Assembly (NCBI GenBank): GCA_963801725.1
Contig: CAWDFX010000002.1
Location: forward strand, 1,507,231-1,539,230
DNA length: 32,000 nt
Origin: an uncultured Nitrospiraceae bacterium
GTDB lineage: Bacteria > Nitrospirota > Nitrospiria > Nitrospirales > Nitrospiraceae
Direction: 5' to 3'
Shown here: positions 18,489 through 23,303 of the stretch, piece by piece
How the letters are laid out: the number at the start of each line of letters is the position of its first letter
Position numbering within the stretch: position 1 is the stretch's first letter
Notes under the pieces: generated by a model
What the model was told of the DNA's origin: nothing
Database searches by the model: none
What the model saw: only the letters and a program-made list of their open reading frames with translations
Program-made: the position numbers and the translations under genes

Positions 18489-19289
18489 TTAGTACGGGAT
18501 CACATGCAAACAGTCCTTGCTCTCGTTGTTCCAGACCACATCACACAGGTTGGACATGCGCGCCACGATCTGCGCCGCCACGCCCCCCGTGCCGCCGAAC
18601 AACCCGCACCAGCCCAACGTCACAAAGCCCCAGTGCAACGGCGCGGCAAAGAGCTCATCGACGAACCAGAACGCATGCCCCCACTCATTGAGGCCCACGT
18701 TCGGCAGAATCATCATCGGCCCCACGATCGCTCCCACCAACGGGAACGAGACCGCCTTGCTGAACTGCGGCAGCCGGGTCATGGCATACAGGTAACTCGC
18801 GACGCCACAGGTGATGTACAACGGGAAGGTGAAGTAGAACGCGATAATATGGCTGGCGGTGAAGCTCGTATCGCGGATGATCACTTGATGCCACGACGCA
18901 TCCTGCTCCAGCGTATAACTGCCGGCCCAGTACACGCCGAACACATAAATCGCGAGCCACATCATCCAGTAAAAGTACCGCTTGAGTTCCGTCTTGGGAT
19001 CGACGTTGGCGATGTTCCGATCCCGCGTGCTCCAAATCCATCCCAGGGTCGCGGCCGAGAAGATGATGTTGGAAATCACGTTAAAGCGCCACAGGCCCAT
19101 CCAGACGTTTTCGAACTCCGGCGTCATCGAGTCCAACCCGTGGGAGTACCCAAAGACGCGCTGAAACACGACCTCGGCGCCCACCGCCGCCAACATTGCA
19201 AACCAGCCGATCTTGAGAGGCCTGGAATCGTACCAGAGCGACATGTCGTACCCCCGGTCGCTACCCCCCCATGTTGTTGAACTCGCCAT
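18489..19289 (-). CDS. amoC: Ammonia monooxygenase subunit C
   Basis: [57 protein letters not shown] (the conserved AmoC/PmoC metal-site region). ATG 19289 has GGAGG 7 nt upstream. Confidence 0.95.
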
Positions 19290-19396
19290 ACACGGACCTC
19301 CTTTTTATGTGATTGAGACCCACCGCGTATTCCAGAGAAAAATTCTCCGGGGAACCATCACTACTACTGGTTGCTGCCGTTTATCTGCGTGGCGGG

Positions 19397-19426
19397 AGAT
19401 TAGCGGATACGGTTTCTTGATGTCAA
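19397..19426 (-). promoter_or_regulatory. Candidate sigma70-type promoter for amoC
   Basis: The minus strand has a perfect -35 TTGACA (19426..19421), an 18-nt spacer and a weak -10 TAATCT (19402..19397), about 110 nt upstream of the amoC ATG. This is a pattern match only. Confidence 0.2.
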
Positions 19427-19460
19427 GTAGAATATCCAAGGTGGAAGCCTACATCCTGCT

Positions 19461-19476
19461 TGCAAAATGCGTGCAA
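19461..19476 (-). promoter_or_regulatory. Sigma54-like -24/-12 motif and TTGCA-N7-TGCAA palindrome abutting the IS end
   Basis: The minus strand reads TTGCACGcattTTGCA against the consensus TGGCACG-N4-TTGCA. All specified positions match except the first G of the GG dinucleotide. The same bases form an inverted repeat TTGCA..TGCAA. Confidence 0.15.
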
Positions 19477-19477
19477 A

Positions 19478-20490
19478 GGACTATGCACTTAACTCCAGTT
19501 TCGTCACCTAAATTAAGAGGTGCCCGCAACCAGTCTGGAGTAGGGGGCAGGCTCAATTGATACAGCTTGCGCGACAAGTCCGTAGAACAGTTTCCAACGG
19601 TATCTGGACGTTCGACGGTTGAATCTAAACGTGAATTCCTCGAGATAGGTATCCAGCTGCTCGCGGGACAGTGCACCTTGATGGGTACCCATCAACCAGC
19701 GTCTCAACAAGGAGGCGACCCGGTGTACGCGGGGTAGCAAGGCAGACGACTGTTTTGCCGTTGGCATTGATCAATCGCGGTCGGTGCTTGAAACCCTCCT
19801 GTTTCAACCCTGCATAGCCTTTCCATCCATCCGTGATGACTATGGAGCCTGGTTCAACCACGTGTTTTACGAAGGTGACGAGCTGACTCGGAGAGGCGGC
19901 GGGAATCCGACGCAGACGGATGCGCCCAATCCCTTTCCCATCAATCTGCGCGGCGATCGCCACCAGGGCCTTGCTCTCTAGGTGCCAGCGGCCTCCTCCC
20001 GCCTCGACGTTCCCCATATGCATTTCGTCCACTTCAACTTCGCCTCCCAGTCTGTCCCAATCCGGCAGTACCATTGCTCGCCGCAATTTTTGTAGCCACA
20101 ACCAGGCAGTTCTATAACTGCCAAAGCCCAGCAGGCGCTGTAGTCCTAAGGCGCTGAGCTGGTGTTTCTGTCCGGTCATCCACCACATGGCTCGGAACCA
20201 GTCCTGCAAAGGAAGGCGGGTTCGATGGAAGATCGTTCCCGCTGTGACCGAGGCTTGGTATCCGCATCGGCGGCACATCAAGAGGCATCGTGTGGTTGTC
20301 CAACTGCCGTTGGTCGTGCACTGTGGGCAACAGAACCCAGTCGGCCAACGCAACCGAGCTAGGTAGGCACGGCACGCACCTTCTGTGGCGAAGCGCTGCT
20401 CGAACTCGGCGAGGGTCCGCATTATATAGTCCTCCACGGTGTGACCCCGCTAGGCCTGGGGTATACTGGAGTCAAGTGCATAGTCCGTTG
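19478..20490 (-). mobile_element. IS1595-family insertion sequence, full length with terminal inverted repeats
   Basis: IR-L 19478-19499 ggactatgcacttaactccagt; IR-R 20465-20486 actggagtcaagtgcatagtcc, whose reverse complement is ggactatgcacttgactccagt (21/22). The heptamer gtgcaaa occurs at 19471-19477, directly abutting IR-L, and at 20492-20498, 5 nt beyond IR-R; this may be a target duplication. Confidence 0.85.
19513..20422 (-). pseudogene. IS1595-family (ISXO2-like DDE) transposase, frameshifted near 19745-19765
   Basis: N-terminal Zn-ribbon (CPQC...CRRCGY), then the DDE region (EVEVDEMHMG..., SIVITDGWKGY). The C-terminal part (LPRVHRVASLLRRWLMGTHQGALSREQLDTYLEEFTFRFNRR) lies in a different frame (ORF 19513..19767). 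The switch is around the A4 run in ggcaaaaca. ATG 20422 has GGAGG 8 nt upstream. Confidence 0.85.
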
Positions 20491-20880
20491 TGTGCAAAAA
20501 ATATACAAGAAGGTGTTGTAATGTCAAGCACGCAGGAACACCTAAGATTGCCACGCGGCATCTGTGCCAACAAAGGCTGACGATCGCCGAGCTTCCTGAT
20601 CCTGTGTCCCGTCAGGGGCTCACCCGCGCTCATGCAACTGTTTGGGGTTGTTTAGAATGAAGGTCCCGACTAGCCTGTGGGGTATTCGGGCAAAGAAAGT
20701 ATAGGGCGCAACGACCTTGCTACTACAGGGTTTTGAGGAGCAGAGTATTTCTAACTGTCATATTCGAATTGTCGAGAAACCATAGCCGCCATATCCTCTT
20801 CTCCTTAAAGTTCTCCTTAAAAAGTAATCAGTGAGACGTGCCCCGGTCTGCGCCAGACCCATTTTCTTCCATATGGGAAC

Positions 20881-22902
20881 TCAGTGCACGTGATCGTCTG
20901 GAGGCGGACGAATTTCATCTTCCCTGTTAAGTTGACCGATCTCCCGCATCAATGCGCCGATGTCCGTCCATCCCGCTCCATCCACCTCAGGGATCCAGCG
21001 CGCCCGCAGATAGCCATAGCGGTCTATCAGGAACTCCATGTGTTTGGGCGCTGTTCCCTCACCGGCCAGATCAGGATTGCTGAGGGTTCTACGGAACAAT
21101 GCGTAGCTTTTCGCAATTTCCGGCCCACCCTGCGTTGCCACGGGGAAAGGCATGTTTGCCAAGACTGACTCCAGATCCTGCTGTTTGCTGTCATTCACTG
21201 GGACCGCCAGCACCACCGTATTGCTGCCACTTAGTGTGGCGTATGCCAGCCGCAACTGATCGAGCCTCGTGCGTGACTCTGGCCACGAAAACAGCACCAA
21301 CAGCACTATTTTGTGTTGGCGGAAATCCTTCAACGTGCCGCTTGCGCCGTCGTGCGCGGAATAGGAGAAGTTTTGCGGGGCCATATAGGGCTGATTGGGG
21401 GCGACAAAGGGGTTGATGAGGCGCGCCTGATAGCCGCGGGACGTGGCATGGAGAAAGTTCACGACATCCCAGCGATCCTCTTCTGTAAGTTTGTCAGCAA
21501 ATGCCGGCATACCTGTATCGGGAATACCATAAGTCAGCCAGTGGAAAAAATCGCCTGCGGTGTGCTTGAGAGTGTGCGGCTCCGTGAGCAGATCCACCGG
21601 TGGCTTCTTGAAGGTCTTGGCCAGAACGCCATTGCCCTTGGCTTGAGGGCCGTGGCAAGGCACGCAGTTCGCGGCGAAGTGGGTCGCACCGTTGGCAACA
21701 GAAATGGCATCGAACGGGACCGGCGTCTTACGGTAGGTTTCAGGATAGGCCTGAATAGCAATGGGAGGCAGCGCCACGGCCAGCGCACAGGCAGCCAGTG
21801 CGATCGGGATGGTTATGCGCCATTTTGTTTTCCAGCGTTTGGTTCGACCTAGTATGATCGCCCCACCTGCCAGCACAAGCAGTGCGATTCCGATTCCCCC
21901 TCCAATCATCGCTCCCGGCTCGCCCCAGGTGGCGTCGATGGAGAAGCGGAATGGATAGGGCCAGTCTTCAATGACGGCATGCTTTGCCGGCACGGCGTTG
22001 GCCAGCACTGTTGCCACCAACACCAGCGTCAACGCGATCGCGAATTCGACGGATACCCATTTTCGAAGGCCTCGGCCACCGGCTGCAGCTACATTAGGGT
22101 TCTGATCAAGCGACGGCACCCAGAGGAGGCGAGCGCATGCGCCGATCACAAGAATCGGTGCGAGCAACGAGACCTTTGTATTCAGTAGCCAGCCGTAGCT
22201 CGTCGCAACTAATGCAGCGTAGCTCGTGTCCACCATCTGATCCGCAACGAGGATGCCGGTGGCAACGACAGCGACCATCACCGGCAACGCTATTGCCGAG
22301 AAACGCTTCAGGGTCTGGATATCGGACCGATCCACTTCATCGTGTGAGCCCTTCCTACTAGTGGCGAATATGACCGTGAGAATGGCTGGCAACCCTCCGA
22401 ACCAGACACTTGCGAGAATGATGTGCAGCGTGTAGGGCAGGACCGATGCCACGGATAGCTCTCCGGCTGCGGAATGGCTTGCGAGCGATCCCACTGCCAG
22501 CGTGAGCGCGGCGAAGGTCGCGCACAACACATACCGCCAATGCGCCGAAGGGGAGAATCGAATGTAGAGGGCTACGCCGAGGACGATAAGCGCAAGGGCT
22601 GCGCGCGCCATCCAGATGAGTCCTATGCGGGTTTTCTGTAAGAATTCTAGCCAGGCCCCCGGGTGCCAAGCATTTTCGGCTAACCCCGTGGCCTGCGCCG
22701 TAGTCGTGGCCAGCAAGCCCACCAACCCTAGCAAAAGCGCGACTGAAAGCCACGGTAACGCCTGTCCCAGGCGGGCTGGCCATGGGGCGTCGGATGCGGT
22801 TCTGGCGCGCACGGCAATCGCGAGAAAGACGCAGCCGCCGATCAGGATCATGTTGGACGCAAGCTGCAGCCAGCGGAACAGCGCGCCGATGACCTCGATC
22901 AT
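20881..22902 (-). CDS. copD: CopD-family copper transport membrane protein fused to a mono-heme cytochrome c domain and a Cys-less thioredoxin/peroxiredoxin-fold domain
   Basis: About 380 aa of polytopic CopD-like membrane domain. Next comes CVPCH (codons 413-417, about 21652-21666) with a downstream GMPAF Met ligand region. The final ~170 aa have a redoxin-like fold (KIVLLVLFSWPESR...VLAVPVND...MEFLIDRYGYLRARW) lacking catalytic Cys. ATGA overlap with copC. Confidence 0.85.
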   Translation of the reverse strand: MIEVIGALFRWLQLASNMILIGGCVFLAIAVRARTASDAPWPARLGQALPWLSVALLLGLVGLLATTTAQATGLAENAWHPGAWLEFLQKTRIGLIWMARAALALIVLGVALYIRFSPSAHWRYVLCATFAALTLAVGSLASHSAAGELSVASVLPYTLHIILASVWFGGLPAILTVIFATSRKGSHDEVDRSDIQTLKRFSAIALPVMVAVVATGILVADQMVDTSYAALVATSYGWLLNTKVSLLAPILVIGACARLLWVPSLDQNPNVAAAGGRGLRKWVSVEFAIALTLVLVATVLANAVPAKHAVIEDWPYPFRFSIDATWGEPGAMIGGGIGIALLVLAGGAIILGRTKRWKTKWRITIPIALAACALAVALPPIAIQAYPETYRKTPVPFDAISVANGATHFAANCVPCHGPQAKGNGVLAKTFKKPPVDLLTEPHTLKHTAGDFFHWLTYGIPDTGMPAFADKLTEEDRWDVVNFLHATSRGYQARLINPFVAPNQPYMAPQNFSYSAHDGASGTLKDFRQHKIVLLVLFSWPESRTRLDQLRLAYATLSGSNTVVLAVPVNDSKQQDLESVLANMPFPVATQGGPEIAKSYALFRRTLSNPDLAGEGTAPKHMEFLIDRYGYLRARWIPEVDGAGWTDIGALMREIGQLNREDEIRPPPDDHVH

Positions 22903-23303
22903 TTCTTTTGCACTTTATCCTTTACCGTGAAGTCGAAGGAAGACTCCACCACGTGACCGTCTACCGACAGCACCCGAAATTTCACGGAATACTTCCCAGG
23001 CGCCAATTCCGGTAATGGCAGGATGATGGATTTTCGATCATCCGGAGCAAGTTGAGGATGGATCTCGGTTACAGGATGCTTTTCGGCGTCGAGCACGACA
23101 AGGGACGCGTAGTCGCCTTCGATTTCTTCGTTGAACCAGAGTCGTACCTGCGCCGGCGCTTTGGCGAGGAGAGCCCGGCGCGGCGGCTCTGCCTTGACCA
23201 GCATTGAATGAGCTAACGCCGGAGCGGCATATACGCACATAGCCATGGCCATCACTGCGCCTACCATGACGCGCTTGGGCGCATGAACGACCCATGATCC
23301 CAT
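22899..23303 (-). CDS. copC: CopC-family periplasmic copper-binding protein
   Basis: The signal peptide ends ...APALA|HSMLVKAEP, so the mature N-terminus is His. A CopC beta-sandwich pattern follows (VRLWFNEEIE..., YSVKFRVLSVDGHVVESSFDFTV). GAGGAGGG lies 6 nt upstream of ATG 23303. Confidence 0.9.
   Translation of the reverse strand: MGSWVVHAPKRVMVGAVMAMAMCVYAAPALAHSMLVKAEPPRRALLAKAPAQVRLWFNEEIEGDYASLVVLDAEKHPVTEIHPQLAPDDRKSIILPLPELAPGKYSVKFRVLSVDGHVVESSFDFTVKDKVQKK

Follow-up and report, generated by a model that had tools for sequence, protein, structure and literature searches.

Some DNA-binding regulators derive from transposases, among them IS1 InsA and transposases that repress their own promoter through an inverted repeat (IR). 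In eukaryotes, domestication within the Merlin/IS1595 superfamily has been recognized from old, single, conserved open reading frames accompanied by decayed terminal IRs and target-site duplications, on the argument that neutral copies would become pseudogenes (PMC8101967). The IS1595 family has been described as making 8-bp duplications (PMC8101967). Among comammox Nitrospira, a 'transposase family protein' lies beside amoCAB in the clade B metagenome-assembled genome RCB and some clade A genomes have transposases upstream of amoCAB, and these have been taken as hints of lateral gene transfer (PMC6852473, PMC12903955). Clade B comammox bacteria were the most abundant ammonia oxidizers of Danish natural habitats in a national survey (PMC12823411). 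The open-access literature yielded no paper linking comammox with IS1595 or reporting conservation of the transposase gene. Clade B comammox bacteria are uncultured, and we know of nothing reported about how amoCAB is controlled in them.

Here we analyze a 32,000-nucleotide stretch of DNA from an uncultured Nitrospiraceae bacterium (the window), in which an IS1595-family element lies between copD and amoC. The transposase gene of this element is probably the same gene as the one annotated beside amoCAB in RCB. The parts of the locus are as follows.

20881 to 22902, minus strand: copD, fused to a cytochrome c and a redoxin-like domain (context)
20489 to 20496, no strand: direct-repeat copy TGTGTGCA on the copD side, matching the other copy at 7/8 positions and decayed in most species
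19476 to 20488, minus strand: IS1595-family element of 1,013 bp with terminal IRs, single copy, its ends placed by comparison with the G117 copy
20465 to 20488, minus strand: IRL, the copD-side end, adjoining the start of the transposase, with a conserved inner 18 nt and a variable 6-nt outer tip
19476 to 19499, minus strand: IRR, the amoC-side end
19468 to 19475, no strand: direct-repeat copy TGCGTGCA on the amoC side, within a conserved palindrome
18489 to 19289, minus strand: amoC, the first gene of amoCAB (context)

The order on the minus strand is copC (22899-23303), copD, element, amoC, amoA and amoB. The transposase gene, copD and amoC are co-oriented, and 186 nt separate the end of the element from the ATG of amoC. 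The initial annotation had proposed a co-oriented IS1595-family element between copD and amoCAB, and both the gene map and the protein family matches given below bear this out. The terminal IRs it described, identical at 21 of 22 positions, were recovered at 19478-19499 and 20465-20486, and a repeat-finding tool extended them to 26 nt at 92% identity. We set the ends of the element by analogy with a relative elsewhere in the family (G117), which is 64% identical, lies outside the amo locus between a perfect 8-bp duplication, and has IRs starting 6 nt outside a TAT(G/C)CAC core. In this register the IRs, tips included, are 24 nt long and agree at 22/24 positions. The heptamer previously noted as a possible target duplication is real, and is better described as an 8-bp direct repeat, TGCGTGCA and TGTGTGCA, that abuts both ends of the element and matches at 7/8 positions in the window. 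Across species the copD-side copies resemble a decayed TGCACGCA (7/8 in G099 and G045, 6/8 in G064 and lower elsewhere), and among 43 scored copies, of which three lie at other sites, the flanking 8-mers match at a mean of 3.2/8 positions. The amoC-side copy is conserved across species because it forms part of the palindrome.

DNA, protein and IR-motif searches of the 3.34-Mb genome found the element once, with no further copies or paralogues, so the copy count suggested as a check on the initial annotation yielded a single copy. A search of 19100-21000 against Rfam, with E values up to 1, gave no match. The element resembles the IS1595 family as described (PMC8101967) in its length of about 1 kb, its one open reading frame (broken in the window assembly), its PF12760 zinc ribbon, its PF12762/NF033547 core, its terminal IRs and its candidate 8-bp duplication, and is unlike IS1595 insertion sequences in being single-copy and, as detailed below, fixed at one orthologous site across the genus. 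It also differs from an active relative in the same genus (G094), a 1,005-bp element present in at least five identical copies, of which at least three carry clean 8-bp duplications, in agreement with the family description (PMC8101967).

The transposase and its translation signal occupy the following positions.

20431 to 20435, minus strand: Shine-Dalgarno sequence GGAGG, 8 nt before the ATG, conserved across species
19748 to 20422, minus strand: N-terminal part of the transposase coding sequence, from the ATG at 20422-20420 through a zinc ribbon and a three-helix module into an RNase H-like core, to amino acid 225
19747, minus strand: single extra base that breaks the frame, found in no relative and in no contig of three public runs
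19513 to 19746, minus strand: C-terminal part of the coding sequence, with the third catalytic residue (H), an R at +7, the E-R4-R7 motif and the stop codon

Translation probably starts at the ATG at 20422 and not at the upstream GTG given by the open reading frame lister. Pfam assigned the protein to Zn_ribbon_IS1595 (PF12760, 1.3e-09) and to DDE_Tnp_IS1595 (PF12762, 3.3e-13 and 3.6e-06, split over the two frames); NCBIfam model NF033547, with a cut-off of 75 bits, scored 125 bits for the window and 180 bits for an intact orthologue. The zinc-ribbon cysteines C32, C35, C50 and C53 are invariant in 34 sequences. The catalytic residues in the window are D132, D198, H233 and R240. By its motif (DDHK with E-R4-R7) the element belongs to what we take to be the ISSod11-like group of the family. 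An AlphaFold model (pLDDT 75.6, pTM 0.70) places a zinc ribbon and three helices before an RNase H-like core, with D132 on beta-1, D198 after beta-4 and H233 on the following helix, as a DDE enzyme needs. The modeled fold matches the ISCth4 transposase, retroviral integrases, TnsB and mariner-type enzymes.

The transposase had been described as split by one frameshift, and the split is there: a single extra base at 19747, with the N-terminal part ending in NANGKTV at 19748 and the C-terminal part beginning SALLPRV at 19746. With the frame restored across the break, the protein shares 98% identity with the intact 302-amino-acid protein of G099, and the downstream frame is otherwise undamaged. 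The extra base occurs in none of the relatives, and every contig spanning the site in public runs X1, X3 and X4 is without it; the contigs listed, from two of these three runs, are about 98% identical to the window. The most likely source of the frameshift is therefore an error of assembly or else a very young mutation private to this genome, and it probably does not represent biological pseudogenization. Programmed frameshifting was considered and rejected, as no slippery site is present, every relative has one continuous open reading frame and the public contigs lack the base.

We next consider the distribution of the element. A DNA search with 18700-21300 matched ten related species through the whole element at 74-86% identity, resuming in copD. 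When the 85 species of the genus were searched at the protein level, 45 genomes each had exactly one orthologue (67-100% identity), a count that includes the query's own genome (G010) and that of the window (G000); the weaker matches are separate IS1595 elements. Only two of 286 genomes from other genera of the family hold an orthologue of at least 64% identity, and both lie at other sites. One of them, in G373, is a 76%-identical copy in another context, which indicates that the element has moved at least once; this copy carries a stop codon. Among clade A comammox we found no orthologue closer than 52-57% identity, and none beside amo genes in the stretches read. Within the genus, about 38 fetched loci show copD, transposase and amoC on one strand, and a 909-kb metagenome contig reads copC-copD-transposase (302 amino acids)-amoC-amoA-amoB.

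The co-occurrence of the transposase with amo genes was limited mainly by assembly. We found amoA in 45 of the 85 genomes and both genes in 31, leaving 14 genomes with the transposase only and 14 with amoA only; these are mostly explained by contig breaks in multi-copy amoC or just after copD, and one contig stops 30 bp inside the element. In two species (G049 and G020), amoCAB lies in another context, behind different genes. The empty-site comparison with relatives that the initial annotation had proposed turned up no empty site, including in the 14 amoA-positive genomes without an orthologue (where most contigs break), and in no genome of the 85 does copD lie directly beside amoC without the element. 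The polarity of the event consequently rests on the anatomy of the insertion sequence, namely its IRs and the decayed 8-bp repeat. Neither several copies nor polymorphic sites, the features of a mobile element, were observed: the element occupies the same site wherever its flanks are assembled, and no excision joints were found in four public runs.

The age of the element can be read against its neighbor. Across 494 species pairs, the transposase has a median dS of 0.93 and the copD C-terminus one of 0.90 (ratio 1.04), and pS of the two genes is correlated (Spearman 0.81, for pairs that are not independent because the species are related). This parity indicates that the age of the element matches the divergence of these species and that it was inherited with its neighbor. 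The initial annotation had suggested a relatively recent insertion, a reading contradicted both by a dS equal to that of copD and by the orthologous copies, 74-86% identical in nucleotide sequence, that about 40 congeneric species carry. Relatives carrying the same sequence without insertion sequence features had been named as grounds for abandoning the annotation; the relatives carry the sequence with those features, which marks a conserved lineage feature instead of a recent accident. We are highly confident that the element is ancient and selectively maintained.

Selection on the protein is strong and uneven. By the Nei-Gojobori method, dN/dS of the transposase is 0.13 overall, 0.066 over amino acids 1-125 (zinc ribbon and helices) and 0.18 over the catalytic remainder, with copD at 0.09. 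The frame is complete and open in 39 of the 45 genomes carrying the element; the other six comprise three genes cut by contig ends, one truncated by rearrangement (G048), one with a frame break (G045) and the window itself. In public metagenomes, the best-listed 120 protein clusters (83-100% identity) are all 301-304 amino acids long. Their annotation goes no further than 'IS1595 family transposase' or 'transposase-like protein'. Bona fide mobile relatives have dN/dS values of 0.13-0.18, and because the constraint is equal, strength of selection alone cannot separate a host function from a selfish one.

The catalytic residues have decayed repeatedly. In a maximum-likelihood tree, relatives outside the locus retain D-D-H/N-K with E-R4-R7, whereas DDH[K/R] with ERR is retained in only 15-17 of 38 locus-bound orthologues, over half of which have at least one of the seven signature positions (four catalytic plus E-R4-R7) replaced. 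The first Asp has become Asn (one clade of four species), Gly or Ala in at least three separate losses; the catalytic His has become Gln (one clade), Tyr (twice), Glu or Asp; and the catalytic Lys has been replaced by Thr or Asn several times. Within the Asn and Gln clades dN/dS is 0.08-0.22, so the protein is still under selection after its canonical catalytic residues were lost. The window's own lineage has an intact signature (D, D, H, R and E-R4-R7) and IR tips that match at 5/6 positions, and its copy could therefore still be competent for transposition.

The IRs show a parallel division. Mean pairwise identity over 24 nt is 0.78 for IRL and 0.87 for IRR, against neutral references of 0.56 at four-fold degenerate sites and 0.43-0.57 in spacers. 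Identity at IR positions 7-24 is mostly 0.9-1.0 and the two ends agree in 92%, whereas at the tips (positions 1-6) identity is 0.27-0.86 and the ends agree in 44%. Three out-of-locus relatives have tips that are identical or nearly so between their ends. Both IRs are present in every copy. As judged from these alignments, constraint is released on the features used for cutting and joining and kept on those used for sequence-specific binding.

The spacers on either side of the element carry three conserved DNA sites.

20500 to 20527, minus strand: P1, a sigma70-type promoter (TTGACA-16-TATATT, 11/12) just outside the element, conserved in 39 species
19461 to 19476, minus strand: palindromic, sigma54-like motif TTGCACGCATTTTGCA abutting IRR, once per genome
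19397 to 19441, minus strand: P2, the conserved amoC promoter, with a -35 box TTGACA at 19421-19426, a -10 box GCTAAT or TAATCT at 19397-19404 and an upstream element at 19427-19441

Mean pairwise identity is 0.72 for P1, 0.90 for the palindrome and 0.94 for P2. The predicted start of P1, near 20493, lies about 5 nt before IRL, so predicted transcripts run through IRL into the transposase. In an RNAalifold prediction of the P1 leader, CUCCA in IRL pairs with the Shine-Dalgarno UGGAG in a fold-back-like structure (-4.2 kcal/mol, no covariation). P2, in the spacer that separates the element from amoC, barely varies from species to species and has a predicted start near 19390; a simple promoter scan missed it because its -10 box is weak. 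The suggestion that the insertion had disrupted the amoC promoter did not hold, since this sigma70-like promoter (19397-19426) is intact and conserved. A simple scan of the gene strand from copD through the transposase to amoC found no intrinsic terminators.

The palindromic, sigma54-like motif described earlier is indeed present beside the element, and its -12 TTGCA and spacing fit. Its -24 part reads TTGCAC or TCGCAC, and we rejected a sigma54 promoter since the -24 GG is absent in every species, with TG or CG in its place. The palindrome occurs only beside the element, in 22 genomes of the genus and in 0/286 genomes of other genera.

Metatranscriptomes X4 and X6 contain contigs 98-99% identical to the window that cover the transposase coding sequence at a depth of about 4, with depth 0 over the copD 3' end and the spacers and 100-2000 over amoC. 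This suggests low-level transcription of the transposase, contig coverage in an RNA library being weak evidence of transcription because of possible DNA carry-over.

Our main reading, to which we assign a probability of roughly 0.6, is that the gene between copD and amoC encodes a domesticated, putatively DNA-binding transposase that derives from an ancient single insertion and is bracketed by two sigma70-type promoters. That it serves the host in some way other than transposition is probable.

The alternative that survives best, itself improbable, is an ordinary selfish, mobile insertion sequence that persists by occasional transposition or by horizontal travel with the amo locus and is conserved for transposition. 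The full DDH[K/R]+ERR signature in 15-17/38 orthologues, the window's lineage included, would follow from it, as would the presence of both IRs everywhere, the related copies at other sites in G373 and G117 (with the perfect 8-bp duplication in the latter) and a dN/dS resembling that of mobile relatives. Such an element, however, would have to have stayed at one copy per genome in 45 genomes and at the same site wherever flanks are assembled, with a dS equal to that of the neighboring gene and no excision joints in four runs. It would also have to have lost its tips and catalytic residues repeatedly while purifying selection persisted, and the 76%-identical copy in G373 is interrupted by a stop codon.

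Retention of the transposase as a recombinase of the locus itself, mobilizing or rearranging the amo genes by one-ended transposition, amoC duplication or island transfer, seems to us still less plausible. No insertion sequence ends were seen at the new junctions of the rearranged loci in the stretches read, more than half of the orthologues have lost catalytic residues, the IR tips are decayed, and synteny is otherwise very stable. These observations weigh against the relocation of amoCAB in G049 and G020, its separation from P2 in G046, the multiple copies of amoC in these genomes and the published view of transposases beside amoCAB as signs of lateral transfer (PMC6852473, PMC12903955), all of which a locus-level recombinase could explain.

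That the element is a neutral relic carried along by a strongly selected locus, and that its conservation reflects recent sweeps or gene conversion of the amo region, is in our view very unlikely. The flanking genes are strongly selected and lateral amo transfer among comammox lineages has been proposed, yet dS is about 0.9 and near saturation, nonsynonymous divergence is seven-fold lower, the reading frames are open, and the IR cores, unlike spacers in and beside the element, do not evolve at the neutral rate. The 7/8 flanking repeat, near-perfect IRs and single frame break of this assembly might suggest that the element arrived relatively recently, that a frameshift has already turned its transposase into a pseudogene and that the insertion rewired amoCAB expression in this strain. 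This version can hardly be right given the element at the orthologous site in about 40 species, the extra base missing from ~98%-identical public contigs and the intact, conserved P2.

The domesticated transposase would have the following history. A single insertion of an IS1595-family element into the copD-amoC spacer, between P1 and P2, would predate the radiation of clade B comammox Nitrospira (the 'Ca. Nitronatura' genus), and the element would have been inherited with the locus since. Purifying selection has kept the gene for the 302-amino-acid transposase and, in both IRs, the inner 18 nt, while the parts needed only for mobility (IR tips, target duplication, and the catalytic D, H and K) have eroded in many lineages. 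We infer that the transposase binds both IR cores because its N-terminus and the IR cores are strongly constrained; the tamed protein may still do so through its zinc-ribbon/helix-turn-helix N-terminus. The IRL core lies at about +5 to +30 of P1, where binding could give auto-control of the transposase's own transcript. The IRR core lies upstream of P2, about 55-75 bp from its -35 box; occupancy of this core, or pairing of the two ends in a synapse, could modulate amoCAB transcription. This effect on amoCAB is inferred, and we put forward a role of the transposase as a regulator of amoCAB only tentatively. A more specific version of the domesticated reading, which we regard as speculative and rather unlikely as it stands, is that the exapted, full-length IS1595 transposase, together with its two IR sites, acts in cis on the amo operon of clade B, as a regulator or architectural protein particular to this lineage. 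The protein would bind downstream of P1 and upstream of P2, and synapsis would loop out its own gene, coupling copCD read-through, its own expression and amoCAB transcription.

Each of the described systems resembles part of this arrangement. As in IS1 InsA-type regulators, a putative DNA-binding module of the transposase would act on an IR at or after its own promoter, IRL lying just downstream of P1. InsA-type regulators act within mobile elements, whereas the clade B unit is immobile in most species, its promoter lies outside the element, and a second candidate site lies upstream of a host operon promoter. The case for domestication is the same as for Merlin transposases, an old, single, conserved open reading frame with decayed features; unlike the Merlin cases, this one is bacterial and retains a full-length protein, both IR cores and a conserved genomic partner, amoCAB. 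A further difference from IS1595 insertion sequences is that many species have decayed tips and catalytic residues together with a reading frame under purifying selection. Finally, where transposases beside amoCAB were read as marks of mobility in single genomes (PMC6852473, PMC12903955), the gene described here is an ancient, conserved and selected part of the clade B locus.

These results bear first on how such genes are interpreted, correcting a common inference: a transposase beside amoCAB is cited as a sign of recent lateral transfer, and here it is an old component of the locus. They also provide a bacterial example in which a transposase and its own candidate binding sites are retained while the features of mobility decay. 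For clade B comammox, a selected, transposase-derived gene between copCD and amoCAB in nearly all members of the clade constitutes a testable, lineage-specific candidate for the control of nitrification.

We searched for the palindrome that adjoins IRR, the amoC-side end of the IS1595-family element, across the genus and beyond:

window 19461-19476, palindrome TTGCA-N7-TGCA, adjoining IRR

It had a single occurrence in each of 22 genomes of the genus, invariably next to IRR, and none in the 286 genomes of other genera. The palindrome is a candidate binding site for some regulator or else a candidate piece of the element's functional unit.

The element also has a predicted promoter on either side. 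The sigma70-type promoter outside IRL that reads into the transposase (P1, window 20500-20527) and the conserved amoC promoter (P2, 19397-19427) resemble each other over an extended stretch around the -35 box (CTTGACAT.A..A.AC), at 72-76% across 17-18 nt. At this locus the element is thus flanked by a pair of related promoters. In an alignment of the P1 leader (window 20408-20494, minus strand) with its orthologues, CUCCA of IRL, the copD-side end, can pair with the Shine-Dalgarno sequence UGGAG, and GCA can pair with the start-codon region. This pairing resembles the IS10-type fold-back inhibition of read-through transcripts; it showed no covariation in that alignment because both paired sides are invariant.

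Between copD and the transposase, a 73-aa ORF was called on two metagenome contigs (L114 3686-3907; window about 20490-20880). It is probably not a gene, since the spacer is weakly conserved (pairwise identity 0.44). In one relative (G004:C181:8444-12849), copD and the element lie ~2.5 kb apart, compared with ~390 bp in the window, which suggests a secondary insertion in that spacer.

At sites other than copD-amoC, two copies reached at least 64% identity, of which the closer (G373) is broken and the other (G117) open. The G373 copy (L070, G373:C46:10900-14900) is 76% identical and belongs to a different genus and a different context; both of its IRs are present with identical tips (GTGGGC), and it contains an internal stop codon. 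A more distant IS1595-family relative (48% amino acid identity, 1,005 bp, ~24-nt IRs) was found at five loci of G094 (L083-L087), with at least five identical copies, of which three or more are bordered by clean 8-bp target duplications. This relative is active.

The window's genome (G000) holds three more amoC copies (C1:421518-423782 and C2:1346172-1346796), whose 5' 590-625 bp are 88-98% identical at the DNA level, and it is because amoC is multi-copy that most relatives' MAG contigs break inside this gene. In two species (L057, G049:C149; L064, G020:C56), amoCAB lies downstream of unrelated genes, without the copD-IS-P2 region; judged from its sequence alone, the ORF upstream of amoCAB in G049 resembles a sigma54-type activator. 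A further species (G046) retains IRR followed by the palindrome, P2, the 5'UTR and the start of amoC as far as about codon six, and diverges beyond that point (L043, G046:C9:107636-111595); that contig also carries amoA, at a distance of ~240 kb. Here, amoCAB has moved away, leaving the transposase behind intact.
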